Positions 20,641 to 50,169 of a stretch of 64,000 bases of DNA are shown here, in pieces. The DNA is from Isurus oxyrinchus (lineage: Eukaryota). Location: NCBI GenBank assembly GCA_026770705.1, contig JANJGN010000034.1, positions 11,532,001 through 11,596,000 of the forward strand, in the 5' to 3' direction. The notes beneath the pieces are model-generated. The model was not told the origin of the DNA and ran no database searches. It saw only the letters and a program-made list of their open reading frames with translations. A program made the translations under genes and the position numbers. The first letter of the stretch is position 1. Every line of letters starts with the position of its first letter.

Positions 20641-21406
20641 AATGCCAAAGTCTCCTGCTTCTGATGATTTCTAATCACCTTTGTTGAGTACATATGTACA
20701 TTTCGAGTTCAGGAATGGTGAGGATATGATTCCTGCCATGAGCTGCAATTTTAAAATGTGAGATCTGTACAAACCTGCTGGGCACATACAGCAGTATGGT
20801 TGCATCAAAATGTATTGTTCTGAGAAAAAAATCTATTAAATTTTGATTTTGACAATTATTATTCTTTCCCTCAAACCAGTCTGAATTTCATCTTTTATCG
20901 GATTTAAAAATAAACTAATTAACTTCATTGAAAATATCCATAATGAAACCCGAATGTCCACTGAAGCAACACACAACTGTTCAAATACTTCGTCCATGAA
21001 ACTCGTATGTTTTATATCATCTGGTATTCCTGCTGTAGAATTAAGATTGAGCCGTTATGTCTAATGGCTTCTGGGATCATACCACAAAAGCTTCCTCACA
21101 TCCAAAAGTTAATTCGTTTAAGATTAGTCTGTAAACAAAGAAGTTCAATACTATCAATTATCAATGAACATATATTTTATTACGAGTTCTGTCTCAAAAA
21201 GCATCTAAGTATTCCGAGTATACTTACTTAAATAAATAATCTCTGAGGCAATTTTCCTTGGCAATGTAAAAGTGATGAGCTATTTGTTTACATGTTTCAA
21301 TAAATAATCATTATATGCAAACAATCATTTATTTCCCTTTTCCAAATCTGAAATGTAGCAGGTATGGTGATAAGTTACAAAACTAATGATCTGTTGGAGC
21401 ACCTGC

Positions 21407-21682
21407 AGCTAAAATTTGGGTTCTATAGGTCACTTGTCATTCTGCTAAAGGAGTTGAATGCGTAGCACTTGAATCGTCCATCAGAACTAAACACTGCAGA
21501 TATAGTGAGAGTTCCATTATCACCGCTTAGATCAAAGCTGCTGTCGGTAATAATATCAGGATTATCCTCAAGCCACTGATATGAAACTGCAGTGCCTGAT
21601 GCGATGCATGTCAGAGTCACGATCTCATTGTATTCAACTGAGTTGGTGACATTGTTGATTATATTAGGCTTTTAAATAGGTT
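21407..21682 (-). pseudogene. First IgC2 exon, disabled (EPI*KPNIINNVTNSVEYNEIVTLTC...YQW...NGTLTIS...FKCYAFN...SDL*NPNFS)
   Basis: Acceptor tttgacag; 276 nt, phase 1-1; C-W-C Ig pattern; in-frame TAA at 21672-21674 and TAG at 21423-21425; donor is gcaggt rather than gt. Confidence 0.88.
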
Positions 21683-22929
21683 CTGTCAAAGCACAGGAAA
21701 GTAGGTATCAGACCTGAAAAGTAAGTTTGGAGGATGGTGGATTTAGCTCCAAGTTCTACAGGCAGCATTTCATTTTGAATTTTCATCTGTTGTTTCCTTT
21801 CGGTAATAATTCCTGTGATGCTGGTGTTAATAATTCTACGATCTTTATCCCCACCCCACTACCCACACGCAACCCCCACCTCCCCCTCACCGCATGTGCC
21901 ACGCACCCCCACAGCCCCCGCCCCCAACAAGGTAAACCTGTCCCCTTGAATTTATTGCTCACTTAGAATATCAACTTAAATAAATTTCCAATCATGAAAG
22001 GAACATAGCCTACTAAACCAATTACAGACTCGGTCCTAAAATAAAATGTCCTCTCCTCAAGGAGCCTCCAACCTAATGTATTTATTTGAGGATAGAACAT
22101 GCGTAGAGGTATATTATAGCAGACTGAACTATTGTGGAGGTTCCCAAGATCAGGTCTTCGGATTCGAACTTCGACTCCTAGGATATTTTTATCATGTACG
22201 TGGGCTCGCGGAAAAATAGAGATTGGAGACTGCAACTCTTGTACACTTACATAATACATTTTTTAAATCAAATCCAGTTATATATTACAGCTAATACATG
22301 AGACTAAATCTAATCATATGATATCAATAATATTTAAGGGAAATACATTTTAACCCACCATAGTCAGCAGTTTTTTGCATAAAAAACAAATATCAATTAC
22401 GCACAAACGATTGTCATTACTCAAGATTCTGGAGTGTCTTTGTCTCAAATATAGGGAATCCAAGCTTAGACTGATACTCATTCTATGGCTGCAAAGATGG
22501 CCGAAAGATTGTTGGCCTATGGATCCCATTACCATCTGTCTGTTTAAAATCATCGCAGCTGAACTCAAAAAGGCTTTCATTACGCATTGGTGTTTGTGAT
22601 TCCAAAATAAAAAGCACTGAGTAAAAATAATGATCAATGTCATTGGTGAGTGTAGATAAGAGATATTTACCGACTAAAAGGAAACATTTTGGTTGGCAGC
22701 CTTCCAAAAGTAGAGAGACAATCCAAAGGTTTTTTTGGTTATCTTTGGACTTGACATCCTGGCAACGATTCAAGTACTGTAACCATGCTATAATATCAAG
22801 CTCTATGCCTAATTGCTTTCTTCTATTAATGTTAATTAGTACATCTTAAATTTGCAATAATTGTGTTAGTCTTGTCACACTGTCAACTTAAACCGTGCAA
22901 GTTCTATCTGTTGATCCCTGAGATTCAGA

Positions 22930-27045: not shown

Positions 27046-27235
27046 TCCAAGCCCATGGTGGAAGTCTCCTTTATTGAATTCAAGAAGAGTTTGTCACCCT
27101 TCCATTCCCAAAATATCAGGATTTCTTGCAAATCGAGTCCAGGGCAGACAGAGAATGCGCATGTTGCTGCTAATTACGTCATCACGCTTTTTGGCGCCAT
27201 CGCGCGCGCGCTGTGAGACAAGACGGGCCACTTAC

Positions 27236-27553
27236 CAAGGACGTGCAGAGCGATGGTTGCTGTTGCTTCACTGCCATTAACTGGAGTCATGCTAACAATG
27301 TAATCTCCACTGTCCGAAGCTGTCACTGACTTCAGCAGCAATGATCCGTTAGCGAGGAAGATCTCAGCCCGTGTTGTGTACTCATTATGGAAATCAACAG
27401 CTGTCTTGATCCACCGACCTATAGTTTCCCTCTTGAACTCCCAGTTTCCAGACCTCACCGCGGCTGACGGCTTCACTGAAAATAATGCGTTTCCTCCGAC
27501 GGTCACATTAATCCGACTGTTTTCTGTCAGGATGGTGAAACCCTGGGGCTCAG
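27236..27553 (-). CDS. IgV (CEACAM N-type, cysteine-less) exon, intact: AEPQGFTILTENSRINVTVGGNALFSV...W...RAEIFLANGSLLLKSVTASDSGDYIVSM...ATIALHVL
   Basis: Acceptor tttctttctttag, donor G|gtaagt, 318 nt, phase 1-1, no stops; NGSLLL..DSGDY motif; no B/F-strand cysteines; lies within ORF 27174..27758. Confidence 0.92.
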
Positions 27554-27706
27554 CTAAAGAAAGAAAATCAGCATTAAGGACGAAGCAACCAGAAACTCGA
27601 CAAAACATCGACTTCTCGAACACCATACCCTGATTTTCTCTGACAATCTCTTGCTGTCTTGTTTCTTCAGTCACTAAAAGAACTGATATAAGAACGTGAT
27701 CCTCAC

Positions 27707-27758
27707 CCACAGATAGCAATAAGCAAACAGCGACCGCAGTAAGTGTCAGTCTCCTCAT
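27707..27758 (-). CDS. Leader/signal peptide exon, copy A (MRRLTLTAVAVCLLLSV-G)
   Basis: ATG at 27758; 52-nt exon; hydrophobic peptide; phase-1 donor G|gtgagg. Confidence 0.9.
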
Positions 27759-27781
27759 CCTGAGGGAACTGCGCCTGATAC

Positions 27782-27870
27782 ACTCGGCAACTGATCCGCT
27801 CTTCCTGGTGTACAGAGCAGATCAACTCAATCATTTAGCGAAACGGCAATGCTGATGGGCTCGAGCTTTG
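27782..27870 (-). promoter_or_regulatory. Conserved proximal promoter/5' UTR block of cassette 1 (ETS-type CAGGAAG at 27801-27807)
   Basis: An approximately 90-bp block conserved upstream of all three leader exons; CpG-rich neighbourhood. Confidence 0.55.
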
Positions 27871-27934
27871 TTCACCTGACTGCAAACTTGTGGAATTGGA
27901 GCTGTTACATAGCGTTGTCCTATTTAGAACATTG

Positions 27935-28200
27935 CTTGCCTGGCCGAGCTGCCATTTCGCCTTTTCACGGACCCTGTTTCGATTCCTGACCTCGGGTGTC
28001 TGGCGGTGAGGAGTTTGCACTTTCCGGGTGCTCCTGTTTCCCTCCACACCCCATGTTCACAGACGTGTGCAGGCCACGTTAAATTGCTAATGAGTGTGAC
28101 CTATGTTGGACTGACATCCCGCCCTGCATGTACACCGCCTAGCGCTCGTTGCCTGTCACCAGAGGCTCTGGCTCTGCGGCCCTGAATCGGAAGAAAAGAT
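27935..28200 (+). mobile_element. V-SINE (HE1-like) remnant
   Basis: ggaccctgtttcgattcc B-box, then ggagtttgcac..ccgggtgctcctgtttccctccaca V-domain core. Confidence 0.65.
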
Positions 28201-28399
28201 TCTGGAAAAGAAGAAGTGCTTGTCTGGCCCTTTACGGTTCCGTCTCCTTGGTTTGTTTTTTGGAGCCGAAGACACGAGATATTTCTCCCAGATCAAGAAC
28301 TGGCACGTTGCATGGTGCTGCGCCAACCCAGTTAAGTGGGACCGCTGATTGTCTCCCGCTCCAGCAATGTCTCAAGTTTGAAAAGGTTAAATGGCACTA

Positions 28400-28735
28400 A
28401 TCCCGATTTACCTCTTAATCTCCGTGAGCCCATTCTGCCCCCTGAAATCACTGCGATCCTCCAATTCTGGTCTCTGAATTACCCCGAACATTAATCACTC
28501 TTTCATGGGCGGACATGATATTCAGCTGCCTCAGTCCTAAATTCAAGAAATCCGATCCTGAACATTTCCACTTCTCTACCTCTCCCTGTTCAATAAGCAG
28601 CTTAAAACCGTTCCCTTTCACCGAGGTTACAGTCACTTGTCCTTTTCTTTTGCCTGGGGTCAAATTGAATTTAGTAACAGCGCTAAGAAGCAGCTCGTGA
28701 CGCTTTATGAGGTTAAAGGGACTTTATAATTGTTA
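28400..28735 (+). mobile_element. L2-type LINE 3' end (paralog at 43405-43700)
   Basis: ctgcgatcctccaattctgg..ttcagctgcctcagtcctaa.. shared between the two positions upstream of leader cassettes 1 and 3. Confidence 0.55.
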
Positions 28736-28859
28736 GGTTTTCTCGTTTTGTTTACTGGCCCTTCGTTATTGAAAGGATGACTTTAAATCGCCTCAGCCGG
28801 CAGCACAAATCGGGCGCGGTCACTTTGCCAGCCCATTATAGCCCGCCGCCGTACCCCAC

Positions 28860-29271
28860 GGCTCTTTCCCACACTCCGAATATCGCCCCCTCTCCGGCTT
28901 CGATCTGGTTTCCCGTTCGTATTTAAATCATTTGACCTCCTGGCGAGCAGGAGGCTAACGGAAGACGGCCGGCGACAGGGAACTAATGCGATACAGGCCG
29001 CAGACTCCTTCTACGTTCAAGTGCGGCAGCAACACTGGGTGCTCAGGTCTGAATGGTCGGAGGTCAAGTCCGATGTTTATCTCCCCTCCCTATTCCATCG
29101 ACAGACTGACCGATACCTTTCTCCCTCAATACTCAGTTCCTATTCCCCGCCTCAGCTGACGGCTCCACTGGGGTTGGGAGGGTGGGAGGCGGGTGGGTGG
29201 AAATGATTGGCCTCCGACTGTCACATTTATCTGACTGTTTTCTTATAAGGTACTTAAACCCTGGGGATCAG
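28860..29271 (-). pseudogene. Degenerate IgV exon remnant (ADPQGLSTL*ENSQINVTVGG...)
   Basis: Acceptor ttcctcag; 5' part clearly homologous to the intact V exon; early TAA and then decay; 3' boundary approximate. Confidence 0.7.
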
Positions 29272-29437
29272 CTGAGGAAAGGTAATCACATCAGTGAAGC
29301 GAAGCGGCCAAACTCGACACGGCATTTTCTTTTCTAAACTGTTAACGCCTGTTATATTTGAACCTGATTCTCTGACAAGCTCTTTTTGTCTTCCTTCTCT
29401 ATCTTTAAAATAAATCATACGAGAAATTGATACTCAC

Positions 29438-29489
29438 CTTCATCCATTAATAAGCAAAGAGCGACCGCAGTCAACAGGGGTCTGATCAT
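29438..29489 (-). CDS. Second leader exon (MIRPLLTAVALCLLMDE-G), open
   Basis: 52 nt, ATG and G|gtgagt donor; paralogous to 27707-27758. Confidence 0.75.
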
Positions 29490-29520
29490 CCCGAGAAAAC
29501 ACTGCCACGCTCTCTGTACA

Positions 29521-29605
29521 ACTCGGCGACTGACCCGCACTTCCTGGTGTGCAGAGCAGATCAGGTCAATCATTGGCTAAAGCTGCAAAGCTGATTGGAC
29601 CGAGT
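29521..29605 (-). promoter_or_regulatory. Promoter block of cassette 2 (CAGGAAGTG ETS site at 29538-29546; CCAATCAG at 29591-29598)
   Basis: Paralog of 27782-27870 with consensus ETS and CCAAT motifs. Confidence 0.55.
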
Positions 29606-30121
29606 GCTTTTAACCCGACCGGAAACCTCACCACAGAAAAGCAGCTGCATATACATTAGAAATTATTGAAAATATGCAGCGAAGTCGGTTTATTGTTAGT
29701 TGAGCAATTGAAACATTTCCCCAGGAATTAAAACATTAAAAACATTTTAAAAAACATTCTCCAGGAATGTATTACTGAAAGGTGAGTTTCAACTGGAAAT
29801 GAGTATTCCCTGGCATACAATTTTAATCTAATTGGATAATCCATTCAAAGGTTCCCGCCGATTGGCCTCCTTCTATAGTGGTGGGGGACGGCGGGGGAGG
29901 AGGAAGGTGCATGGTGTCATTTATTCATTATGTTTTGCGGCTTAGTTGTCAACACTCTCGCTGCTGAGCCGGTAAGTTGTGGGTGCGATTTCCCACTCCC
30001 GCTGTCCGCCGCTGTTTTTCGGCCTGCAGTCCTTCCAGTTCTCCACAAGGGACACGACTGTCAAGATAAACAAAAAGAGACATATATTCGTGTTCAGATG
30101 CTGTGCTTTGGGCATTGCTGT

Positions 30122-30146
30122 CCCCCCCCCCCCCCCCCCCCCCCCC
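30122..30146. repeat. poly-C (25)
   Basis: Homopolymer. Confidence 0.95.
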
Positions 30147-30719
30147 AACACACACAACCCCCACAGCCCCACAGCCCCAGCCACCCCCTGCCCCCCGAGC
30201 TATCATACCAACAATGAATGATCCTTCGGGAAACAATTAAAATCGACCACAGATTAGGAGAACGATGAATTCTTGGCAGTTTGGCAACATCTCAATCTGG
30301 GAGCTTCAATCGAACATGTGGCCGAAAATTTCACAAGCAAACATGTCGGCAGCAGATCATCCATGACGTGGCACATCCTGAGTTCAATGTTCAGATGCAG
30401 GAAGGGTAGGGGATGGGATAAGACTGAACCAGGGTAGGCCCACAGATTATTGGCTTTCTGTTTCCGTGTTAAACCTATACTTCGTCCTACATATTATATA
30501 ATAATTTTACGAAGCTGTCTTATTACAGAAAGTATACTTGTCCTTCCACTCGCTCTCTAAAAAACCACACTCAGTTTAGTCACTCTTCTTGTCACGTGTT
30601 TGTGCCCATTGTATTGCAATGTGCATTGTATCCAAATAATCGTTCAGCAGTATCGAAGTTGAGTATTGCTGAAATATTGACATGATATCAAATCGTTTCC
30701 TCTTCCACTCATCTGAATA

Positions 30720-31940
30720 GCTGGCAAAAATTGTAATGCAGGAACAACAATTTATACTGCATGAGAAGAGTGCGTTGAATGGTTGGCAATGGGATTCTGA
30801 TTAATGGAGTTGTTGCCATGGAGAAAATGCAGCATGGGACAGTTAGCTGCTCAGCTTTGTTAAAATTAAAGCCAGGCAGGACGACTCTGATTAGTGTAGA
30901 TGCTGCCCTGGGTAATAAATCAGCGAATGAATTTTCCATAAACATATCTTTAGATGCAAAAAGGTGCAACAAGTGATAATGTTCATTTTGGTTGCAAAGA
31001 ACAGGAGCCTGTGTGTGAATATATGTGAGCTCTAGGACACACAAGTGAGCCAGTCTGCCAGCCTGACCGATAACGTTAAATTGCTTTTCAGTGTAATTCT
31101 TCGCACAATCAGCATTATTTGGCAGCAGTTGTCCTAACATAGATCTTCACCCTAAGTTGGACACTATATTATAAGGGTTTTGCAAGCAAAGCCTGATTGG
31201 GGATGGTCAGTACCTTCCTTCCCTGTTGTGAACAGCCGAAGGGACATGCTGTTTGATACGACCTTCCAAATGCTGGGACGTATCACCGTTGTACCTGACA
31301 ATACACTGGCACTGAAATTCATAGACCACATTGCCAATCGGTGAGTTAGGCCAAAAGCCTTCTTGACTTGATGGCAACTTCCTCTTAGTGGAGATTGCCA
31401 CCCGGGTTATAATGCATAGGTACAGCGTGCTATGCCTAGCTTCATTGATTTTATTGTGACACCGTACCCTTCCAAAGCAATCTGAAGTAGATTGGGCACT
31501 TTTCAGGACTGAATGTGGCAGCCTAAGGCCCACTACTGAGTTTGTACAATATGCAGCAAAGGATAACTCGATCAGGTGACATATTGTTCCACAGGATGAC
31601 TTTGCTGCGCATGGCACATTGAGTCATTAAAACTGAACTGAGTTCAGTTATGCACCCTTGAAGCCATAAATATTCACACACAGGGCAATGCCCATTGTTG
31701 AACAAAGGAAGCTGCCCTGGCATTGCTTCTTTGCAACTAAACAAAACTTATGGAACAGTCATTGGGCAACACATTGATCAATCAGCATCAACCTGCCTGG
31801 ATTGATTTTGAACAAAGCTGGACGGTTAGTTTCTTGCTGCATTCACCATAGCAAGACTTCTGGCAATCAGAGTCCACTTGCCAACAAATCTGAATGATCT
31901 TCTCTTACAGTATAAATTGTTGTTTCCCCATTTCAATAGG
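30720..31940 (-). mobile_element. Penelope-like element with GIY-YIG endonuclease and inverted pseudo-LTR
   Basis: NVVYEFQCQCIVRYNGDTSQHLEGRIKQHVP; approx. 30730-30895 is an inverted copy of approx. 31775-31937. Confidence 0.85.
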
Positions 31941-33139
31941 AACAGTCTTGGGAGCAATCCTCATGCAAGGCAAACGGAAAGCATTGAGACCATGTGTCTA
32001 CTTCCAGAAGTACATTGTATTATAACTTCCTGCTCGGAAATTAAGGATGCAAGTTGTCCGTAAATTAGGCACCCCCATTACTGAGCAATCCGATCACTGG
32101 TCTATACTGACAATTTGCTCAGGTTTCAATTTACTTGAAAAGTTCGTAAAATGCTAATCTGCCTCTCAATCCCAGTAAGTGAAATTTCAGATGTCGAAGT
32201 AACTGATGAAACATTTTAAAATGTGTATATTTTGAGGGGTCATGATTGAATTGCTTAATTGAGCCTTTTTCTGTTGTGCTTCTTTGTTCAACCTTTAATT
32301 CAACTTTTCTCAACAGCTCCCAAGTGCACGACTTGAGTTTTCATTTTCCTCCAATGTTGAGATCTTGGGAGATCACTTTGGATTCTGCAGTCTCTGATAT
32401 CTAATTTCCCAATTTGCATCGACTCTGCTCAATCAACTGAAGTGATGGAATTTGCAGGGAAACTGTGGTCTAACACACAGTACTGTACATTGAATAGTAA
32501 AGGCCACCAAGACAGATTCAGTAAATTTCCCTTCAGCCCACCCAGTCTTCAGTGACCACTGTGAGTCGCTGTAACTCATTAAAACTCTTTCCCTCACGAG
32601 GCACTTTAACTCTTCACTTTCGAAATCCAACCTCTCAATTGCATCAAATATTGCTCTGGCTCGGACTGCCTCAATTACTTCTCACCTCACAGTGGTTCCG
32701 CCTCTTCTCCTGAGTAGTTTTCGTTCACAGGGTTGAAAATTCCGCAATCTGAACACGAATTACTGGCATACTTCCAGCTCTTTTGCAGATGGTTAGTTTC
32801 ACTAAATTGACACTGCTGTGCATTTCTGCAAACGCCAGTCTACCAGTTGCACTGAGCTATAAATGGTTTCCAAGGTTTCTCTGCGCCCTAACTGCCTCAC
32901 ACAGGACCAGCAACATTCCACGACCATCTGAGCTCCCAGTTCTTCTCAGAACCTGAAGTGCCTGGTGTCTGCTTAGTGTGCTGAAGCATCATTTGACTAC
33001 ATCAACTGTTTAAAAGGTGCGCTGCCGTTCAGTTCTGATCATGTAAGATGATATGAGATTACATGCTGCATGATTTCTGGATAATGAGTGACCAGGCCTC
33101 ACCATCACCTGAACCGAATAAAGTGAAAAATGATGAGGA

Positions 33140-33555
33140 CCTCAGTTACATATTTAGATTGCAGATGCTCTGCTTGCCCTCCTGGGAGACAAAACATCTG
33201 ATATCGCTAACATTATAGATAAGCATAAATATCATGAAGGGTATGGACAGAGTTTTTAGCGAAAGGCTGTTTCCTTTGATGGAAGCATCAGGACACTGAT
33301 TTATAGGGAATGGGGAATGAGGAGACGCTTCTTTCATTATTGGTTCGTTAGAATGCAGAATACACTGCCAGAGACAATGCTGAAGGCAGATTCAATCATG
33401 GCTTTAAGAAGGCTTTTTTACCAAAAAGGAAAACATACGAAGGATTATGGGGAAAGGGCAGCGTAGTGCCACCAGATGCAATTCTGTCACAGAGAGCTGG
33501 CACAGATATGGCAGGCTGAATGGTCTCGCTCTATGCTACAAATATTCAATGATTC
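33140..33555 (+). mobile_element. CR1 3' end
   Basis: IMKGMDRVFSERLFPLMEASGH..; tail ggctgaatggtctcgctctatgct. Confidence 0.7.
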
Positions 33556-34789
33556 ACGGAGGAATTTCAACATGAATAGAAGGAAGAGCAAGTACGGTAT
33601 TAAACAACACACCACCTTATGTTAGTGAGGAAATTGCCTCCATATAACAATGTCCCACCTCCCCTCCCCCCAGCACCGCCTGCAAAACCAAACAATATGC
33701 ACTGCAATACAGAGAATCGATCCTGGTTAGTCCGTTTTTTTTCTTTCAATTCCACCAATAACTTATGCCTTTGTTCACAAATCCCAAGCCGTGCAAACTC
33801 TGTTTCTAACTGCCTCTGTTGAGCTGAAAGCTCTCATTTTCCTTGTGCATCTAATGCTTGAATGCAGTTAGTCAGAAGGAAGTCCAAATGTTGCAGCCAC
33901 TTGTGCGGCAAAAGTGGCTCTGCAAACAGATATTTTTCACTTCTTATCTCACGATGTCACCTTTCGGTGGCTGAGGTAATAATTTGTCAGAACCTTTCAG
34001 AATACTGACATGGTTCTCAGAAATTGGACCTTTAAAAATTACACTCACTGGTCTTATGGTTATTGAGCGGGGAAGTATTGTTTCATGAGTAGCTGACAGC
34101 GGTGCACAATCCAACGGGAAGACTCATTCGACCATCCTGTTTGACATTTATCCTGCAGCCATGAGATTATCGCGATTTCGGGACCATGTTATTTTACTGC
34201 GGTGAAATGAATTGCTCTAAACCTTGGCGACATCAGCGGCAACATTGTTCGTTTCCTGGGACTTTGCATGTGGGTAGAAACAATACAAAATCATTTGAAG
34301 CCAATTTTCAGTCCCTCGTATTTTGTGCAACATTGTCAGGAGTGGCGAATTATCTGACGGGCAGGAAATAGTGACTGGGATATATACGAGTTGAGGAATT
34401 TTCTGCTCGTCAGTACTTAAAAGAATAGAACTTGCCTAAGGCAGATGGAGACGGCAAAGTAGCCTGTATGCCATGAAGTGCAATAACACTAGTGGAGGAA
34501 AAGGTGGGAGGTATGGCTCACCATTGTTTGGAAGCTGCTTTCAGAAGCAATGTAATGTAATACGTAGAATTTAAGCTCTTAGCAGCTAAGTTGACCGATC
34601 AGGGCCGTGCCAACTTCCATGATCTGAATGAAAGCCCTCCCACGCTTTTTCACCTAAACCTTATTAACAGTATCCACCATGTACTTGGCCAGCTTTTCCC
34701 AAAATTATTCGATGCTACTTGACTCAACACTCCCTGTTGCCAAATCCCACATTCTAAGCATTCTCTAGTTGTACAGCTTTGACCTGAAT

Positions 34790-35092
34790 TCCTTCTCTCT
34801 TCAGTCACCGTGCCCCAAGAAACGGGTTGGTGACCATGGATTTGAACGAATCACATTGTTTCTCAAAGTGCTGCAGTGGTTTGCCATTGCCTTCTGCAAC
34901 ATGGCTCAACAAGACAGTCCATCCGACGGACTGCTGTGTGGCGTGTTGGAAAGGGTTAACAGGATACTAATCAACCCGCCTGCCCACCGTATGAACACAC
35001 CATCTATTTCCATCAAGACTTGGAGTGAGATTTGAACCAGGGCCTTCTGGCTCAGAAGCAGGGGCACTTACAAGCATGCAACAAGACTTCCC
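34790..35092 (-). mobile_element. tRNA-headed SINE with RTE-type (Bov-A-like) tail
   Basis: Minus strand: B-box ggttcaaatc near 35029-35038, then gaaggcaatggcaaaccactgcagcactttg. Confidence 0.65.
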
Positions 35093-36038
35093 CTCAAATT
35101 CAAAACTGGGCATATTTGTTTCGAGATTATACTTAGGGCTCCAAAATTTGATTCGTTCTAAAGTGGAAGCATATTCTCCAGGTTTACTCTTTCAAATGCC
35201 TTCAACATTTTAAGGACCTCAGGAAAGAGCCGCAGACTATTTAGCCTTTCTTGATATTTAACACCTCTCAGTTTCGGTATCATGCTAGTAAATTCTGCAC
35301 ATTACAGTCTTAGAATTTAAATTTGTAATTCCATTATTAGGAAAAGTAGTGACAGCTATGCAAGTCCAACAAATATCCTTGTTTCGAATTCTGGCAATTA
35401 TTTCAGTTGCTGATGTCATCATTCAGGTAAGGACTGAAATGGTCACCTCTTTAAAGTGCAGATGGCGTATTGCACCATAGATTACAAAGCAGTGACAGTG
35501 AATGTTCAGACTCAAATCGTTCATTGTTTCAGCCGAACTTGGAAGGTTCAGGAGAAGTGCTCCAACTGCTGACTTATCAATGTGAAACTGCAGGGCCAAA
35601 GGAAAGACCGAAGATTTGGAGGGAAAGAGCAACCTCTTGTATCTGAGAGCAACATGTTCCTGAGGCAGCGGCCCACAAGAAATTCAAGCAATTAAACCAA
35701 CCGATAGGCAGGAGGCATCAGTTGATTTATGCTCTGCTTCCCAATAATCATTCATTTTAGCGCTATCAGTATAACACCTTGCAGAGACAAACTGTGCATT
35801 GAAGCAGAGACAGGTTTTGTGAGAGAGAGGCAACGAGACAAAGCGAAAGAGAAAGAGAGAGTCTCACTGTGGTTGAGATATGAACAGAATGAGAGATAGG
35901 GAGGGAGTGGCAGAGGGACGCACTAAGTGAAAAATGAGGAAAGGTTGCGGGACGGGGCGGGGCGGGGGTGGCAGCAGAGAAAGGGACAGGGAAGGGAGTC
36001 AAACTATTAGGAGAAATTAAATATATTTCTTTATTATA

Positions 36039-36616
36039 CGTAAGTCTCCAGACAGCCATTACTGCTAAACATATTAACAGTTGAACCTTGCCAGGTGAAC
36101 ATTACACAGCCTTGACAGTCAGGCTGGAGGCAAAGGTTGGCATAAATTAGATTAAGTGCTCCTCTCTCAGATAAGGAAGGGGCAAAATGGTGTTGACTTA
36201 GATCTGGGAAGATGAACAATGGACAAAGAGGGGGCTTTGATGAAACACAAACAGTCTTGAGTTGCAAGAATCAAGGTTCATGTATATGTGCCTTAATTCT
36301 GATTGGATAGCAAATATATATATACATGCTTTAGAATAATTGGAAAGGAAAATCGCATGTTTATGCACTCAATAGGATAGAGATAGTATGGAATCTATGT
36401 TGGTGGTTACCAATTGGATGTCTTAAAAATGAACTCAAATATATTATGATAAGAACAGGTACAAAAGCAATGAATTGTAATCGATCTGGGAACTAGGTCT
36501 CTATTCTTAGGCATGATTGCGACCCTCTTGCATATGTTTGAATGAAGCCGGTTCAATGAAGCCTGAATCTCGTGTGGTCATTGCGGGATCAGAGAGTGCA
36601 ACGTCCCCTCTTCACA
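36039..36616 (+). mobile_element. Possible ERV-like solo LTR
   Basis: Ends ..gtggtcattgcgggatc..cttcaCA; no TSD found. Confidence 0.35.
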
Positions 36617-36964
36617 AAAAAAGAAACGAGAGAGGCAAATGGCCAACTGGATTAATTGAAATGAGGGATGGAGGGTTCAGTTCTTGAACACACTAATTAT
36701 GTGTTAATGTAGAATGGCTCCTGCAGCAACATCAGTCTCCTCCCTTATGTTGTTTCCGTTCTCCATTGATTAATCTGCACCTGGAGGAGAGAGGCACTAT
36801 TTAAAAGAGGCTCATTGTCATTCATAAGGCCGGAGAAAACGTAGACAGATCGTGCTTTGGTGGATCTAACAAGATTAGTGCTGCCGATGCCTTGAGTTTT
36901 CTTTAAGGTTTCTTTCAGAGCTTCTAAAAGCTATAAATAATCGGGAAACATTTACTCCTTTGTT

Positions 36965-37720
36965 TTCAATTCATCCACGGGGTGTGAAGGTTGCTGACTG
37001 GGCTATCACTTTATGCCCATCCCTAATTGCCATTCAGATGGTGGTGGTGAGATGATATTTTGAACCGCTGCAGTCCCTGTGGTGTAGGTACAACCGCAGT
37101 GCTGTTAGGAAGGGAGTTCCAGGATATTGACTCAGCGACAGTGAAGAAACGGCCTATATATTTCCAAGTCAGGATGTTGAGTGGCTTGGAGGGGAACTTC
37201 CAGGTGGTGGTGCTCCCATGTGTCAGCTGCCCTTGTCCTTCTAGATGGTAGTGGTTGTGGGTTTGGAAGTTGATGTCCAAGGAGCTTTCTGAATTCTTAA
37301 TGTGCAACTTGTGCATGGCACACACTTCTGCCACTGTGCGTCGGTGGTGGAGGGAATGAATGTTTGTGGATGGGATGCCAATCAAGCTGGCTGCTTTTTC
37401 CTGGATGGTGTCAAGCTTCTTGAGTCTTGTGGGAACTGCACTCATCCAGGCAAGTGGGGAGTATTCAACCTGCAGGGCATTGATTTTGGGGGAATCAGTG
37501 ATGGTAATGCCATTGAACATCAAGGACGATGTTTCGATTCTCTATTTTTGGAAATGTCATTGGCTGGTGTTTGTGTGGTGTGAATGTTATCAGCTACTCG
37601 TCATCCCAAGCCAGGATATTGGCCAGGTCTGGCCGCATTTGGACATGGAGTCCTTCAGCTTCTGTAGAATCAATAATGGTGCTGGGCTTTGTGCAATCAT
37701 AATGAAATCATTCATATTTT
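36965..37720 (-). mobile_element. CR1/L2-group LINE 3' fragment with an internal deletion
   Basis: ORF 37023..37523, EYSPLAWMSAVPTRLKKLDTIQEKAA; same family as 18265-20215. Confidence 0.88.
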
Positions 37721-39004
37721 ACTATCATGTATAGATTCTATGTCCTGTTTAATAATTCATTACTTCTCTCTGTTTCCTATGTCAGAATACCAGTCGTCAA
37801 ACCCCATAGCATAAATTCATGAAGCATGCATCTTTATATCACATAAATACATAGTTCTATACATATTTTAACAAAAGCATGAAAAATTATGAATGGATAT
37901 ATACGGCACCGGGAGATAATAATCTTTATCCAATATGGGCATAATTAGTCAATAACGATGCATGGTGTAGGGTGTGGCAGATGCTGATGTTTATCTGTGA
38001 GTTGAAGTTTCACAGGATGGAGGATATGAGACTGTAATGGAGAGAAAATGAGCTTACACATCAAATGTGGGGTGGAGTTTGGCACCGGTTACAGCCTTGC
38101 AACAATAGCTGGGAAAATGGGGATCTAAAGGCTACAGAAGTTTTCACCTGAAGGTGATCCATTTATCCTGATTCTCCACTTTCTGGCCAATGGCCTTAAT
38201 CTACCTACTGATTCACTAAAGGCAGCTGCATCTCATTCATGGTTTAATGTTCAACAAACAATGTGACATCACAGAAATAGAGGAGAGTCGTGGCGGTTGG
38301 CACAGAGGGAGAGATGGGTGTTTAGAGCAAATATGTGCAAACAGATCCGATATCAAGGAATTTTGCCTCCGGAAGATAACAGGTACATGAGGCAAAGTTG
38401 CACAGGAATAGTTCAGTGGTTTAACTGAAAGGCAATAGATGGAGAGAATAGCCATATCTGCAAGTTCACTGCCTTGATTTGGATCGCTTCTAGTGTTACT
38501 AAGGAATAGCAGTCCCGCTGAGTTTGAAACTTAAGAATGATAGTTTTGTTGACTATGCTGAAGAATGCATACTGGCTTCAGAACCATAGACTGTGCTCCA
38601 TGACCAGGGAAAGACAGCTTGTTCTCCATCTGCCCAGGGAGATGCCCATGCAAGCTGCAGCAGGGAGACATAAGTTGGGAGTCGGCGTAAATAGACAAAG
38701 GTGTGTGACGTGTAACCATGTTCGGCATCTCTAGAGAGGAATGGGAATATCAATATGGGTGCAAGATTGCAGTTGCTGGGGAGGGATATTGGGGTTTTAT
38801 AGTGGGAAGTTATTACTAACATTAGTGTTGAAAATTAGAACATCCAAACTTAATAATGTTAAACTGGCAGCTGGAGTGAACTAGAGAGGCAGGAAAGGAA
38901 TATGAATAGGTGGTGGGACTCACTGATGTGATGACTTGCAACAAGGAATGATCGGAGATCCAACAGGAACTTCAAGGAAAGGAGAAAGGCAAAGCATTGG
39001 GAAT

Positions 39005-39142
39005 AAAGACAAAATACGATGCATGCGGGGAACCTGAAGCAAAAACAAAAATATGCTGGAAAAATGCAGCAGGTCTGAAAGCATCTGTGGAGAGAGAGAG
39101 ACCGAGTTAATGTTTCGAGTCCATGTGACTCTACTTCAGATC
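39005..39142 (-). mobile_element. Penelope-derived short repeat with minimal hammerhead-like motif
   Basis: Minus strand ctgaagta-gagtc-acatg-gactc-gaaac. Confidence 0.65.
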
Positions 39143-40499
39143 TACTAGCATAGGGATTGTTTGGTTCCGTGGAAAAGTGGTTGGAAAAAGCGGTCAGTGA
39201 AACCAATGGCCGAAACATTTGTGACCAACATGAACTCCACGAACTTGTAATTAGCATAAAAATTTCTAAGGCTGTTGTTTTCTGTACAATATGATCCCTA
39301 AAATGTCATCGATCAGTCAAATCTTGCCTTAAGCATTGGTTTGATGAAGGTATAATTGTGAGTTCCTCTTCCATGTCAATATTTGTGAAACTCTGAATGC
39401 TACTCCATTGCACAATGAATTCACCTCTCTGAACTCTTACATTCCAGAATATTTCTGCCAATCTGCTGGGTTCTGTCACATTTCCTCTGTTGGAACAAAG
39501 GATTCATTTATCAATCACACAATGCTGAGTGCAGTGAGACCCAGCAGACTGACTGAGCAGCGTTAATTTTTGATTAAGTTTGCATTTTGTAGTACGAACG
39601 TTTGCAAATTTAAAACAGAAGTGAAAATATATTTTAATAAAAGAACGCCCATGAATATTCAGGCTTTCCTTTCATACCCAACAATTGAATCATTTTGCTT
39701 CATTTTTTGTTTAGTTTCCAGTTACCTCTTTCACTCAGTCGGAAGTTACAACTTCCCTAAAATTAATCCTGTATTTTTCTGAAGTTGCTACGGATGTAGT
39801 TCATGTTTTACTTCCTCGGGAACTTTCACCCAAGCTATTAATCCCTTATGGAGAGCTGACAGTTCCATTTTATCTCAAGCTGCATTAAACATAACAAAAA
39901 TGGTTAAAAAAAACTATTTCACTGCATCATTACCATGCTCCAAAATTTGTCTTGCTCCATTTGCCAATAAATGTGCAGTTCTCCGAAGATCCATTTCATA
40001 CTTAATTACTTCAAAGACTGAATTTGCACAAACGGCAGCTGAAATCCACATGCAAATGAGTTTGCAGTTTATTCTGAACTCATCTCTTTCATGATTTCCC
40101 TATGGTGGGAACACTAAATTCCGAAGCAAATTAGACAGGCTTCTCAAAGCCTGTTTAGAGACCAATGTTCCAGTCCCTCAATTTAAATGTCTCAATAAGT
40201 GCGGGATGGGGCAGGGAGGGTGGGGTGGTTTGAAAACATACTCAGTTTAGGCGCACAGTCATTAGTTGTCATGGTAACAGGGACTTTGAAATAAATAAAT
40301 AGATGTAAATAGGCAGATTAAGTCAGCGACCAAAAGCTATGGCGATGTTGTTCAATCTGGGAAAATGTGAGGCTGTTTCGAGTGCTCAGGGGAAGAAAAT
40401 TAATTTACTTTACAAAGGTCGAGAGACATATGAACAGAAGAAAAGCTATTCAGTCCCACAGACCTGTTTCACCGTTCAATGGGAGCATGGTGCATTTAG

Positions 40500-41002
40500 T
40501 CATAGAGTTTTACAACCAGAAAAAAGGCCTTCAGCCCATGTTGTCCACGCCAGCCATCAAGTTCCTCTATAATCTAATCCCTTTTTCCAACAATCGGCCA
40601 GTAGCCTTATATGCTGTGACGTTTGAAGTAAAAACAAAAAAACTGCGGATGCTGGAAATCCAAAACAAAAACAGAATTACCTGAAAAAACTCAGCTGGTC
40701 TGGCAGCATCGGCGGAGAAGAAAAGAGTTGATGTTTCAAGTCCTCATGACCCTTCGACAGCGTTTTTCCAGGTAATTCTGTTTTTGTGACGTTTGAAGTG
40801 TTCATCTAAATACTTCTGAAATGTAGATAGAGTTCCTCCCTCTACCAGCCCCTCAGGCAGTGAGTTCCAGTTATCCTCCACCCTCTGGTGATTTTTTTTC
40901 CTAAATTCCCTCTAAATCTGCTGCGCCTTACCTTAAAACTATGGCCACTGGTTATTGACCCTTCCACTAAGGACAAAGGTTTATTCCTGTCTCGCCTATC
41001 AG
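40500..41002 (-). mobile_element. CR1 3' end, interrupted
   Basis: Reverse CR1 tail (catagagttttacaaccagaaaaaaggccttcagccc..). Confidence 0.7.
40630..40784 (-). mobile_element. Young Penelope-derived insertion with perfect 15-bp TSD and inverted end
   Basis: tgtgacgtttgaagt at 40615-40629 and 40785-40799; 40762-40784 is a near-exact reverse complement of approx. 40667-40690. Confidence 0.85.
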
Positions 41003-42135
41003 CGTCTAGATAACATGTAACCTTAGGGCACTAGAAGCTCCAGCACGAATGTTGGAAATGAAAGTCAAAAAAGAAATGAACTCTTCTGAAACCAAGTCCA
41101 CGAATACTGGCCAAGGAAATGAAAGGGGTTTCATTTGGAATGAAGAGCATATAAGGAGGGTGTATATTACACTTTCAGTTATGTGATGATTTCCTGCCTT
41201 TCCCCGTTTGTTCAAAGGCCCCCGCCCGTTTAGCTAGATATTCATGGTCCAGTCGCCTTTCCGATCACACACCCTAATCCCCACCGCTTTCCCTTGTTCT
41301 CTCCCACACAGCCTTAACCAAATTGAACGCTGTTCCCTCCCCCATTCCCATCACCAGTGGTCTCCCCAACTCCCATTATCAGTGCCTTCCCCTATTCCCA
41401 CTACCGGAGTCCTCCCCCACTCCCACCACCAGTCCCTCCCACAGTGAGCTCACCATTCCCTCCGACACTCATGTCACATAACCTGTACCGCACTTTAGCC
41501 TTAGATCCACTTCCCCACTCCTCCCAGAATTCCCCCCACAAAACTCGTCCTGCTTGACTACTTTGACCTGTCCTGTCACCAACTCTGGTCACTTTTTTTC
41601 CCATCCCCAGTCCAATTACCTTTCACCTCTCCCACTCTGATCCCTTTAGGATCTCACAAGCCAGAAGCTAATGGGCAATGGCTGCCAACAGGAAAGAAGC
41701 GTGAATTAGAGAGTGGACTGTTGTAGGCTTGCTTGGTGTTTCACCAAGAGGTATGGAGTCATGTGTGGTTGAGCATATACCATTTATTGTTATCACACAA
41801 CTGTATACATATCTGCAGGGTATAGCCCAAGGTATAGCTGTTTTCATGCTGACTACTCCCAGACTCTCTACACACTTTATACTATCATGTGACACTCTAC
41901 ATCACAATCTGGGCAGTATTGTTCTCCAGTCCCATATTAACTCCTGCATGCCCAACTACAGTTATACTAGATTCACTTCGTCAAGGTTCATGTGTGACAG
42001 CAACATTGAGTTCTGGATGGGCGACTATCAGACTCGACAGCCTCCGCGCACTCCACCCGCCTTCCCCATGCGTAAACCGCATTGCTGGTTGTGGCGTCTT
42101 CGCGCAAGCGCAGAGCGAAGGGCCGTTTCACTTGC

Positions 42136-42434
42136 CAGGGAAATGTTACCGCTAGTTTGCGTTCATTTGGGCGCAGTGTAATTTCCACCGTCCCACACTG
42201 TCAAGGGCTTCCATAGGAGTGATCCGTTAGGCAGGAATAACGCTGCATTCAATTGTATTTTTTTAAATTGTGTAGCTGGACGGACCGTTCCACACCAGGA
42301 TTTTTTCTTCCCGAAGTACCACGACCAATCCTTCACACCATCTGAGGGTTTAACTGGAAAAAAAATGCGTTTCCTCCGACAGTCCCATTAATCCGACTGT
42401 TTCCTGTCAGGGACAGTAAAACCCTGGGGCACAG
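42136..42434 (-). pseudogene. Second, adjacent degenerate IgV exon (VPQGFT..NSRINGTVGGNA..VKPSDGVKDWSWYF..LFLPNGSLLWKPLTVWDGGNY)
   Basis: Homologous to the intact V exon; acceptor mutated (cat), donor gcaagt, several frameshifts and stops. Confidence 0.8.
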
Positions 42435-42477
42435 ATGAGGAAAATAAACCCGTAATGAGAAAGGCGGTCACACTCAC

Positions 42478-42741
42478 CACATCGTCGGCTTTTCTGTAAC
42501 CGTCTTGATAGTATAATCTCCACTGTCCGAACCTGTCACTGAATTCAGCAGGAGGGACCCGTAAGGGAGGAATAACTCAGCAGGTTCATAGCGTTCAATA
42601 GTTCTACCAGAGCCTGCATGGAGCCACTTCGCGATGCTTTTGTCCCCGAATTGCCATCTCCCATTCCGCACCATAGCTGACGGCTCCAACCGAAAAAAAC
42701 AACAGCGTTTCCTCCCACGGTCGCATTAATCCAACTGTGTA
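42478..42741 (-). pseudogene. Frameshifted IgV exon (HSWINATVGGNA / EPSAMVRNGRWQFGDKSIAKW...AELFLPYGSLLLNSVTGSDSGDYTIK)
   Basis: V motifs split across ORFs 42545..42784 and 42474..42689; frameshift at the T-run near 42693-42700; acceptor ctcctcag, donor gtgagt. Confidence 0.85.
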
Positions 42742-42900
42742 CTGAGGAGAGAAATCCAAAGTAACAAAAGCGCTCAAACTCCACACAACATACACTTTTC
42801 TAAAGAGATAATAATAACATCCACTGATTTGCCCTGAGAATCTCGTGCTGTCATTCTTCTCCAAACCTTAGAAAGAGTGACATGAGAAAGTGATCCTCAC

Positions 42901-42952
42901 CCACAGGTATCAATAAACAAACAGCTCCCGCGTTAAGTGTCAGTCTCCACAT
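42901..42952 (-). CDS. Third leader exon (MWRLTLNAGAVCLLIPV-G), open
   Basis: 52 nt, ATG and G|gtgagg donor. Confidence 0.78.
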
Positions 42953-42981
42953 CCCGAGAGAAACGCGCAAGTCCCTATTAT

Positions 42982-43065
42982 ACTCGGTGACTGATCCGCT
43001 CTCCCGGTGTACAGGGCACATCAGTTTAATCGTTTACTGAACCAGCAATGCTGATTGGACCGTGC
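42982..43065 (-). promoter_or_regulatory. Promoter block of cassette 3 (CCAATCAG at 43051-43058; ETS core mutated)
   Basis: Paralog of the other two blocks. Confidence 0.5.
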
Positions 43066-43701
43066 CTTGTTCATCTGTGCTGAAACTCATTCACAATGCT
43101 GAACATTTATATGTTGCGCATGGTTGACAACCGAAAAGAAATGCATTTCTGATGGGCCGAGTGCTGGGCCCTTGCCTGGAAACTCATTCTATGGAGAGGG
43201 AGCTGCTATAATCCAGTAATATATTCAAAATATTGATGCGCGTGGTGTTTTGTTTTAGTGCACAGCCGCTATTTTTGTTTTTGCAGAGTAACATTGGAGA
43301 GTGGGTGCAGATACGATGGAGCGAATGTCCTCCTTCTGTACCGTTAAAACTCCGTGATTCAGTGACTGAGATATTCATCTAAGAACAGAAAGTAACTACC
43401 TTCCCGACTAATGCACCAAGGAAACTCCATGAGCTGCTTATATCCTCTGAGATTACTGCGTTCCTCCAATTCCCGTCTCGGGTACATCCCAGATTTTAAG
43501 CACTCTACAATGGTGAACCTGCTGTTCAGTTCCCTTAGTCCTAAACTCTGGGATTCCGATCCAGAACATTTCCACCTCTCTACCTCTGTGTGCTCAAGAC
43601 CCTCCCTAAACCTTCCCCTTTGACCAATGTTTTAGACAACTGTCCTAAAGTCTTCTGCTTTTGCCCGGGATCAAAATTGATTACGTAACAGGACTATGAA
43701 C

Positions 43702-44625: not shown

Positions 44626-44829
44626 NNNNNNNNNNNNNNNNNNNNNNNNNNNNNNNNNNNNNNNNNNNNNNNNNNNNNNNNNNNNNNNNNNNNNNNNNNN
44701 NNNNNNNNNNNNNNNNNNNNNNNNNNNNNNNNNNNNNNNNNNNNNNNNNNNNNNNNNNNNNNNNNNNNNNNNNNNNNNNNNNNNNNNNNNNNNNNNNNNN
44801 NNNNNNNNNNNNNNNNNNNNNNNNNNNNN
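44626..44829. other. Assembly gap (N run)
   Basis: Run of n. Confidence 1.
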
Positions 44830-49421: not shown

Positions 49422-49465
49422 CTCATCAATTCATTGTAAACTGACCGATCCTGCACTTGTAATCC
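49422..49465 (-). CDS. Cytoplasmic exon 4, copy B (GLQVQDRSVYNELM-R)
   Basis: 44 nt, splice sites intact; ITAM tyrosines and leucines kept. Confidence 0.82.
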
Positions 49466-49596
49466 CTGTTAAAATTAATAAGGTATTTGTTTTTTTAGTG
49501 AACAACAATAGAGTGTGTTAAAAAAACAAATGAGATGAAATATAGGATGAATAGTCAGTGAATGAGTTAAAAGAATGCACAGAATAATATCCTGAC

Positions 49597-49638
49597 CATA
49601 TAAGTAGATTCTTCCTCAAGTGGTTTTGTAGCTTGCTC
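49597..49638 (-). CDS. Cytoplasmic exon 3, copy B (EQATKPLEEESTYM)
   Basis: 42 nt, splice sites intact. Confidence 0.8.
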
Positions 49639-50104
49639 CTGTAAAAATGCAATTTGAAAAACAAAATATAAGCAGGTACACAAGAAATCCATGTAATTAC
49701 TTCATAATTTAGAACGATTAGAATGGCATATATCCCACAATAAAAGTTATACAAATTTACCTGAAATAACTAGCCTCAAATTAAATTTCAGGGGTGAATG
49801 TTCATTACTAACACGCAGTGAAAGAAGAGCAACCACGCACAGAATATTCATTTCACTCAGCACTCAGTTATCATTGTTGTGGTAAAATTGAAAATTGACG
49901 CCAATATTCCATGCTGCAACAGGAGCATTGCTTAGATAGAATTTTTTTTAAAAAGGAACCGGTCCACTAACAGAGTAAGGCAAAGAAGACCAAAACCCCT
50001 ACCCTAGTCTGACTTATTGCCGAATCCAGTTTACTCCGACTGCATGATTATCCTCACTGAAAGAATTCGCCAATGTGACCATGTGTTAATACAATTGTAC
50101 CAAC

Positions 50105-50169
50105 CTTTTGCTTTCTTGGAATATTTTCGTAGGCCGATGCTGAATTCTCCCCTCTTGCCGCGGGGCTGC
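50105..50169 (-). CDS. Cytoplasmic exon 2, copy B (GSPAARGENSASAYENIPRKQK)
   Basis: 65 nt, splice sites intact. Confidence 0.75.

Follow-up and report, generated by a model that had tools for sequence, protein, structure and literature searches.

CEACAM proteins characteristically begin with an IgV-like domain that lacks the canonical disulfide, and decoys of the CEACAM3 type bind adhesins of pathogens and act as signalling receptors in phagocytes. As far as the accessible portions of the papers cited here describe them, CEACAM3/CEACAM4-type genes have four tail exons, with a YxN motif in tail exon 2 and a phase-0 intron interrupting the first YxxL (PMC2832619), and ceacam pairs of mammals and Xenopus stand in opposite orientation to the ITIM gene, with V exons that are alike while their flanks diverge (PMC5112662; PMC8860441). 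The same portions give 3–8 N domains for rodent Psg genes and 3 for gecko CEACAM1L1 (PMC10440875; PMC13278318). The only prior hint of such a cluster in cartilaginous fish that we found is a skate EST (PMC4079198), and no paper beyond it, within a scope that left out most subscription papers, described one in the parts accessible to us; on CEACAM alternative first exons we found nothing relevant in the literature.

The window, by which we mean the whole 64,000-nt stretch of Isurus oxyrinchus DNA analysed here, lies inside a 0.7-Mb shark CEACAM-like cluster. An exon map of 814 kb places paired C2 exons, transmembrane (TM) exons, and ITIM- or ITAM-bearing tails in this tandem cluster. The intact IgV (CEACAM N-like) exon of the window, at 27236–27553 on the minus strand (318 nt, AG/GT), has a translation (P0001) that contains no Cys and is predicted to adopt an IgV fold with a pLDDT of 94. 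Its Pfam V-set match has an E of 1.6e-4 and 22.3 bits (curated cut-off 26), its best PDB sequence matches are CEACAM1 chains (E 5.5e-5), and most of its 23 database matches are annotated as CEACAM/PSG-like. Foldseek ranks TIGIT and PD-L1 first rather than CEACAM, and a fold search does not separate CEACAM from other IgV domains. Judged by sequence, the shark cluster is a clear case of CEACAM-like paired receptors with ITIM and ITAM members, and it bears the conversion signature known from mammals and frogs.

A first-pass annotation had described three same-strand cassettes, each with a conserved promoter block and an open leader, carrying four V exons of which only the most proximal is intact. 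We recovered three promoter-leader cassettes and four V exons, all on the minus strand; the 52-nt phase-1 leaders are all open from ATG to GT, and only the exon at 27236–27553 is intact, the other three V exons being broken. The promoter block is conserved with its CCAAT at 29.5 and 43 kb but not at 27.8 kb, where CCAAT has become CCCAT. The likeness of the cassettes is far above chance, because 27301–27878 matches 42514–43077 at 69% identity (E 3e-57) and 27493–27887 matches 29211–29626 at 71% (E 2e-40). We think it probable that the three look-alike starts are not a choose-one library but belong to one intact receptor gene and to a second, long-dead neighbouring gene whose front end was stranded here. 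In the same probable reading, the stretch combines the front of an intact CEACAM-like gene (leader-V-TM-ITAM), likely started at 29.4 kb, with a defunct 5′ portion of that other gene. Such leftovers are mostly ordinary for fast-duplicating immune gene clusters.

The window gene extends from these leaders to an intact TM exon and four tail exons, all on the minus strand. The TM exon (6829–6952) lies 20.3 kb from the V exon and is followed by tail exon 1 (6188–6243), tail exon 2 (4747–4811), which contains YENI, a YxN motif, tail exon 3 (4230–4271), which ends in D-S-T-Y-M in phase 0, and tail exon 4 (4056–4099), which completes YMGL-x7-YSEL. The resulting ITAM reads D-S-T-YM|GL-x7-YSEL over four cytoplasmic exons, with its first YxxL split by the phase-0 intron. 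Joined together, leader, V, TM, and T1–T4 encode 233 aa with no stop and AG/GT throughout. The single constant region of the first-pass annotation holds for the TM and tail exons, but both C2 exons carry stops: the one at 21404–21683 has 2, and that at 17815–18083 has a stop and a frame disturbed at its 3′ end (both minus strand). Splicing of the window gene would skip these two C2 exons as well as a donor-less pseudo-V, as the Carcharodon models and sequence constraint suggest. The TM/tail exons of the two V-bearing genes have changed less than their introns (14/331, or 4.2%, vs 325/3495, or 9.3%; p 0.001). The window gene is predicted, from its exons, to be an activating receptor of the form leader-V-TM-ITAM. 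To the extent that the published descriptions are accessible, it resembles the CEACAM3/CEACAM4 decoys in its cysteine-free IgV, TM, four tail exons, YxN, and split YxxL; unlike in CEACAM3/CEACAM4-type genes, its signal peptide lies almost wholly in exon 1. Six neighbouring units have the 42–43 kb cassette and no intact V; that they might function as leader-TM-ITAM adaptors or supply alternative constant modules was considered and rejected, the exons being intact but drifting neutrally (TM/tail exons 18/331, or 5.4%, vs introns 201/3509, or 5.7%; p 0.90). An open V1 in downstream copies that might feed these V-less units was likewise discarded, V1 being frameshifted in 8/8 copies read.

Two leaders precede the intact V. 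The nearer one, MRRLTLTAVAVCLLLSV (27707–27758, minus strand, 52 nt, phase 1), is open, in frame, and 153 nt from the V exon, and is a possible second start; the promoter-like block with CCCAT adjoins it at 27759–27865 (minus strand). The farther leader, MIRPLLTAVALCLLMDE (29438–29489, minus strand, 52 nt, phase 1), is also in frame with the intact V and adjoins a promoter-like block with CCAAT (29490–29605, minus strand) that likely drives the window gene. Between the two cassettes, at about 29105–29271 (minus strand), only the 5′ part of a pseudo-V is left, which runs into a stop after 8 codons and lacks a donor-like site. Four Carcharodon models (XP_041032826-29), which are annotation entries whose RNA support is not visible, begin with a leader of the 29.4-kb type joined to an intact V, and 16–17/17 residues of the 29.4-kb leader equal those of the four model leaders. 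Compared with the copies in the next unit, the 29.4-kb leader has 0 non-synonymous and 2 synonymous changes, so that the claim of constraint depends on just 2 changes, and the 27.7-kb leader has 4 non-synonymous and 3 synonymous changes. From the models and this constraint, we consider the window gene likely to start from the 29.4-kb leader; a distal leader is then probably in service, though it serves the one V that the gene has.

It is also conceivable, though unlikely, that the stretch is plain debris throughout, with the gene starting at the 27.7-kb leader and the 29-kb cassette as dead as the one at 42–43 kb. The nearer leader's open frame and closeness to V fit such a start, as does the divergence of the 29.4-kb promoter block (8.6%), which is no better kept than the intron (7.9%) or the pseudo-V (8.9%). 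X1 and X6 contigs do join V to a leader broadly of this kind, but these contigs show 19–21 mismatches together with an insertion of 6 nt, as found in the promoters of the C2-bearing and ITIM paralogs. The 27.8-kb block, moreover, has lost CCAAT, and the 29.4-kb leader protein is unchanged in the two V-bearing units and Carcharodon, whereas its start has gone from ATG to TTG in six units where V is deleted. The terminal "E-A" of the 29.4-kb leader also recurs in Scyliorhinus and Mustelus, where V-TM-ITAM models have it in their leaders. The 27.7-kb leader may nonetheless be the working one, because in a nearby paralogous gene type the upstream cassette is wholly dead and the second cassette is used. 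As for the plain duplication debris that the annotation had allowed for, it fits the 42–43 kb cassette and all three pseudo-Vs.

Positions 27200–27900 are covered by 14 runs, all as contigs that are RNA by guess, with shares of 0.12 or less and tissue unstated, and we examined six of them (X1, X2, X3, X4, X6, and X11). The leader bin near the 29.4-kb promoter has contig cover in X6. Most run contigs differ from the window V at 1–22 places, and no exact transcript of the window gene was seen in the contigs examined. No joint of the 29.4-kb leader to V was among the 5 joints listed in one run set, none from the 29.4- or 42.9-kb leaders was among the 15 listed of 170, and no contig covered the 29-kb pseudo-V bins or the 42216–42762 bin; in each case, the absence is no evidence of silence.

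The remaining cassette, on the minus strand at 42–43 kb, consists of a promoter-like block with CCAAT and a GGAG/GGAA core (42953–43065), an open leader MWRLTLNAGAVCLLIPV (42901–42952, 52 nt, phase 1), and two pseudo-Vs. Pseudo-V 1 (42480–42742) has a 5′ deletion, a frameshift, and a deleted 3′ end and donor; pseudo-V 2 (42110–42433) has a frameshift and an acceptor changed from AG to AT. A duplication junction lies at 40995–41005, where the matched source switches at 41,000: above it the window matches a distal dead gene (G000:C34:11257713-11260987, 78%), and below it the upstream flank of a four-V gene (11609358–11618804, about 80%). In the distal copy, T3/T4 exons in a decayed state (E 4.9e-59, nhmmer) lie some 440 bp beyond the junction, and another decayed TM-tail set is found 10 kb farther. 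Decayed constant exons of its own, which the first-pass annotation had set against its proposed layout, therefore exist for the distal cassette, as terminal exons kept in the most distal copy. The 42.9-kb promoter block diverges from the distal copy much like its flanks (17.7% vs 19.0–21.5%, p 0.63). In the leader, 4 of the 17 changes among 9 copies are synonymous (neutral expectation 24.5%), and polar residues enter the hydrophobic core, which amounts to neutral drift; against a dead cassette, the leader is open in 9/9 copies (chance about 0.07). The cassette appears to have died before duplication, because the V2 acceptor is lost in 9/9 copies and the V1 deletions are common to 6/6 aligned copies, the distal one included. 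From these sequence comparisons, we take the 42–43 kb cassette to be the start of another gene, one that was already broken when tandem duplication stranded it.

The annotation's statement that no C2, TM, or tail exons lie between the cassettes was borne out with six nhmmer profiles (two C2, TM, T1, T2, and T3/4), which gave nothing credible in 27.9–42.0 kb, the best match to decayed C2, TM, or tail exons having an E of only 0.009 and 9.5 bits. In the control stretch, the two broken C2 exons, which are themselves profile members, scored E 1e-93 and 2e-79. An N run at 44626–44829 is outside the inter-cassette stretch.

This absence of constant exons is one feature of a variable-cassette/constant locus of the protocadherin or UGT1 kind, the layout first proposed, in which each promoter-leader-V would be chosen alone and spliced to a common TM-tail. 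The likeness extends to tandem promoter-bearing cassettes ahead of common 3′ exons, dead members included, and to three leaders that are all in frame with V and TM. The neighbouring unit is also suggestive: its TM and four tail exons lie at 49422–52614 and a broken C2 exon at 62927–63183 (both minus strand), with V exons outside the window (G000:C34:11601105-11608272), and it has four stacked leader-V blocks with four intact Vs, three open leaders, and one TM-tail. Carcharodon isoforms, moreover, skip V exons (6, 5, and 4 V). However, a protocadherin/UGT1-like layout is not supported in the window because only 1/4 V exons can code, and the distal cassette, which drifts neutrally, is part of another gene. 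Internal promoters are truncated or mutated; CCAAT is present in 0/6 internal cassettes (the window's 27.8-kb cassette, four of the next unit, and the terminal gene's second V, from 3 events), which also include one ATG>ATA and one broken leader. Furthermore, the variable part of UGT1 and protocadherin genes consists of one first exon that has no free acceptor, whereas every V here has such an acceptor, and Vs here splice together. An exact joint of V end to V start occurs in 3/4 contig runs (2 samples, 2 studies), although it could also be circular RNA or stem from another family member, and in C2-less shark and ray models of the form V(n)-TM-ITAM, n takes the values 1, 2, 3, and 4–6, recurrence in related species being judged from protein models only. 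The joints and multi-V models point to multi-V chains rather than a one-of-N choice, and we regard the choice of single cassettes as very unlikely.

With one intact gene and a stranded neighbour as the preferred reading, the promoter-leader-V block would be the copied unit in this CEACAM-like family. Copied inside a gene, it would allow phase-1 V exons to be spliced one to the next, yielding multi-V receptors (the joint is present in contigs; its assignment to a gene is presumptive), while the inner promoters and leaders would decay. The window gene would have lost its first V, whereas the promoter and leader of that V likely remained in service. Multi-N CEACAM/PSG genes, to judge by the accessible descriptions, share with the shark units the multiplication of V exons within one gene and their splicing in series. 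Unlike in those genes, the 2.28-kb shark repeat unit carries the promoter and leader exon along with V, leaving decaying internal cassettes; rodent PSGs, too, are secreted, and the shark receptor is predicted to be membrane-bound with an ITAM. Multi-V receptors would then arise from whole promoter-leader-V duplications, a pattern that misleads readers and gene predictors. We are doubtful of a further idea, that the internal promoters of the four-V unit are live and its V exons skippable, giving nested or combinatorial one- to four-V activating decoys with the window gene as a one-V, two-leader minimal form. If true, the four-V unit would be a variable-cassette Ig receptor without rearrangement, with decoys of different ligand faces.

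Chicken Ig pseudo-V arrays serve as gene-conversion donor arrays for the templated somatic diversification of V in immune cells, and the first-pass annotation had raised a similar role here, with pseudo-V exons kept as donors for the ligand-binding V. The pseudo-Vs do lie upstream of the intact V on the same strand, and the intact Vs are mosaics, in that 182/528 informative site pairs fail the four-gamete test. Pseudo-V 1 is also slightly better kept than its flanks relative to one neighbour (6.5%, p 0.012 uncorrected). The pseudo-Vs, however, are 53–66% identical to the intact V, and their longest exact runs with any of 9 close intact Vs are 10–18 nt, about equal for all nine. We found no clustered allele sharing between the pseudo-Vs and these 9 Vs in the germline haplotype: minority alleles match the pseudo-Vs at 24/100, 17/86, and 10/95 sites, in runs of <=3 and no more often than they match other distant Vs. 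Intact Vs at 92–98% identity are the obvious donors instead. Among the 9 close Vs, Sawyer's test gave p 0.066 with no pair surviving Bonferroni, and the V tree leaves them unresolved with the pseudo-Vs on long branches. For the germline haplotype, these sequence comparisons bring the donor reading close to refuted, and we give it hardly any credence. In an innate receptor, either a choice among cassettes as in protocadherins or an array of pseudo-V donors would have been striking; the tests go against both, and what remains is modest.

The part of the conversion proposal that stands is homogenisation among the intact V exons and the V of an inverted ITIM gene, no tracts having come from pseudo-Vs. 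The ITIM/ITSM of the inverted gene was assigned from six of its C2 exons, which are 96–100% identical to Carcharodon P0015, and from the P0014 isoform's tail, its own tail exons lying beyond the mapped stretch. The window V is 94% identical to the V of this gene, while the upstream flank is 54% and the downstream flank 52% identical (shuffled baseline 53%), and pS is 0.078 in V vs 82–84% identity in the C2 exons. From this pattern, we infer that V was homogenised with the ITIM gene by gene conversion. The window V may then act as an activating decoy for the ITIM receptor's ligands, a role proposed by analogy with CEACAM3/CEACAM1 because this surviving V has been kept similar to that of the inverted ITIM-bearing, CEACAM1-like gene. 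As in the accessible accounts of CEACAM1-paired decoys, the shark gene stands opposite to the ITIM gene with its V homogenised and its flanks diverged. In 60-nt windows, 55–58/60 positions agree over 27241–27600, compared with 20–30/60 below the donor and 12–27/60 above 27900, and the shared tract has a sharp edge at the V donor. In the Xenopus pairs, the exon alone is homogenised, as reported in the parts of the source available to us, whereas the shark tract includes promoter, leader, intron, and V.

We mapped exons over 814 kb around the window, with queries taken from matching shark and ray proteins, and find that the window (contig JANJGN010000034.1, here G000:C34:11532001-11596000) lies in a cluster that on this exon map runs from ~11.21 to beyond 11.93 Mb. 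The cluster holds one oppositely oriented gene of CEACAM1-like type (the inverted gene), a V-C2x4-TM-ITAM gene present as three 73.6-kb copies (99%), a series of units, each 41-45 kb long and 89-96% alike, to which the window belongs, and also decayed and terminal genes. The intact V of the window matches shark and ray entries that are mostly annotated as CEACAM/PSG-like (best 80-86%, Carcharodon and Cetorhinus), and CEACAM1 chains are its best solved relatives by sequence. We think it probable that the window is part of a paired-receptor cluster and contains one CEACAM3-like receptor gene, probably started from a distal leader, together with the stranded remains of a dead neighbor. Among papers mostly outside subscription journals, our literature search found no description of a shark CEACAM cluster; PMC4079198 offers a skate EST only.

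As the first-pass annotation had described, three minus-strand cassettes (27.2-27.9, 28.9-29.6 and 42.1-43.1 kb) have 52-nt phase-1 leaders and carry four V exons, one of them intact (27236-27553), and constant exons are absent between them. The single constant region that it proposed is present, although not as it first seems, because both C2 exons carry stops. Leader, V, TM and four tail exons (T1-T4) give 233 codons without a stop, a count that excludes a last short exon past T4, and this frame with AG/GT borders holds from each of the three leaders. The tail motifs at the end are YENI and then YM|GL-x7-YSEL, a layout described for ITAM-bearing CEACAMs (PMC2832619), and V(n)-TM-ITAM models without C2 are recurrent among sharks.

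The V of the 29-kb cassette retains only its 5′ part in the window; a stop comes early and nothing resembling a donor site is present. The leader of this cassette (29438-29489) also begins four Carcharodon models, ahead of 1 or 4-6 intact Vs and the same TM-tail type; compared with the copy in the next unit, it shows just two changes, both synonymous. CCAAT, a familiar promoter element, is present in the 29-kb block, and the 27.8-kb block has CCCAT. The 29-kb leader bin is covered by a contig of sequencing run X6 (depth 13.7). Against use of this leader, its promoter block is conserved no better than its neighbors, on small numbers. On balance the window gene quite likely uses the 29-kb leader, and the 27.7-kb leader (27707-27758) may be a second start.

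Six units downstream retain both distal cassettes and have the 27-kb leader-V block deleted. Were the constant region supplied by the distal cassettes, the TM/tail exons of these V-less units would be expected to remain constrained. We find that they change at 5.4% vs 5.7% for introns (p 0.90), with 6 synonymous and 12 non-synonymous changes, so that the TM/ITAM exons evolve neutrally. Between the two V-bearing genes the same exons do show constraint (4.2% vs 9.3%, p 0.001); comparing the window gene with the nearest V-less copy gives no significant difference (3.0% vs 4.5%, p 0.26). The six units (~41 kb, ~96% alike, G000:C34:11269438-11532000) have intact TM and ITAM exons and no intact V, and in all six the 29-kb-type leader has lost its start codon (ATG>TTG). 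Still more distally, at 11264-11267 kb, a seventh TM-tail set also lacks this leader, and its T1 donor is broken.

The cassette at 42-43 kb is the stranded remnant of a dead gene. Nine copies of this cassette occur in the cluster, each ~5-7 kb behind a tail. At 41,000 the window DNA switches sharply: on the upper side it aligns with the most distal of these copies (78%), on the lower side with the upstream flank of the four-V gene in the next unit (80%). About 440 bp beyond the equivalent point, the distal copy runs into decayed T3/T4 exons (E 4.9e-59), i.e., decayed constant exons of its own, which the first-pass annotation had named as evidence against a shared array; another decayed TM-tail set follows. 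These two consecutive decayed 3′ ends, T3/T4 and then TM-T1-T2-T3/T4, lie at G000:C34:11244-11257 kb. The acceptor of the second V is AT in 9/9 copies and the first-V deletions are common to 6/6 aligned copies, the distal one included, so that the cassette must have been defective already when it reached its place ahead of this constant region. Promoter divergence of the cassette resembles that of its flanks: 17.7% vs 19.0-21.5% (p 0.63) and, in another comparison, 8.0% vs 9.6-13.9% (p 0.29). Synonymous changes make up 4/17 in its leader (neutral expectation 24.5%), which is open in 9/9 copies (chance probability ~7%).

In the next unit, four intact Vs (G000:C34:11600089-11609953, just outside the window) come after a cassette of the same 29-kb type; they are arranged in a promoter-leader-V repeat before one TM-ITAM, and this is a real stacked-cassette gene. 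Its 2.28-kb repeat unit (94-95% alike) contains the leader and part of the promoter, and three promoters are missing the CCAAT end. Three leaders are open; in one leader the start codon has changed (ATG>ATA), and another has Asp in the hydrophobic core. In the terminal gene the second V is intact and its leader is broken. An exact joint of V end to V start (27553 to 27236) is present in contigs of runs X1 and X4 (one sample) and X11 (another study); these contigs are presumed to be RNA, any family member could be their source, and circular RNA would give the same joint. Stacked cassettes probably chain and do not compete. Rodent PSGs and a gecko provide known examples of multi-V CEACAMs (PMC10440875 and PMC13278318). 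UGT1 and protocadherin clusters differ in that every variable exon there is spliced separately and from a promoter of its own (PMC1885805). The initial proposal of variable cassettes sharing one constant region is very improbable for the window locus, given a dead distal cassette, neutral V-less TM/tail exons and probable chaining of stacked Vs. An X11 contig at window 27236 joins a V end to sequence resembling the inverted gene's fifth C2 exon type, a joint that would bypass the first C2 exons of that gene.

Nine intact Vs in the family are 92-98% alike. Measured against the inverted gene, identity in the window cassette is 79% for promoter-leader, 83% for the intron and 94% for V, with flanks at 52-55% (shuffled baseline 53%), and the promoter-leader-V block of the 73.6-kb genes reaches 93-99%. 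The edge of similarity is the V donor; synonymous divergence in V is 0.078 and C2 exons are 82-84% alike. It is the promoter-leader-V block that is homogenized, and this makes the cassettes resemble self-contained modules. The same pattern of similar V and diverged flanks is reported for paired receptors in Xenopus and primates (PMC5112662 and PMC8860441). The intact Vs are mosaic (182/528 site pairs incompatible), and a Sawyer test among them gives p 0.066 only. The suggestion that pseudo-V exons act as conversion donors is also very improbable: in this germline haplotype they have no visible part in conversion, with 53-66% identity, exact runs of 10-18 nt and no clustered allele sharing.

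The inverted gene (G000:C34:11875573-11932738, + strand) has one V and a C2 array that includes two older C2 exons, of which one is interrupted by a stop. One of its C2 exons is 97.8% identical to its counterpart in the 73.6-kb ITAM genes, and conversion may for this reason reach past V into C2. Each 73.6-kb copy (G000:C34:11637337-11856987, 99% identity) also has a leader-V cassette of another type with an early-frameshifted V, a like V being used intact in a Cetorhinus model; between the copies, V and promoter diverge more than flanks.

The window also contains retroelement fragments at 18.3-19.9, 36.9-37.7 and 63.4-64.0 kb, which we take from their reading frames to be LINE-like. A short repeat of high copy number lies at 26.55-26.7, 39.0-39.1 and 40.63-40.76 kb. 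Beside the cluster, another Ig gene is represented by weakly matching C2-like exons (23-33%, G000:C34:11150-11176 kb), and there is a degenerate tandem repeat (11158-11165 kb). Five further, more distant open V-like frames at G000:C34:10.84-10.98 Mb (38-42% to the window V) are possibly a second CEACAM-like group. On another contig, solitary decayed leader-V cassettes occur at G000:C1:148361721-148363618, with no constant exons in 50 kb.
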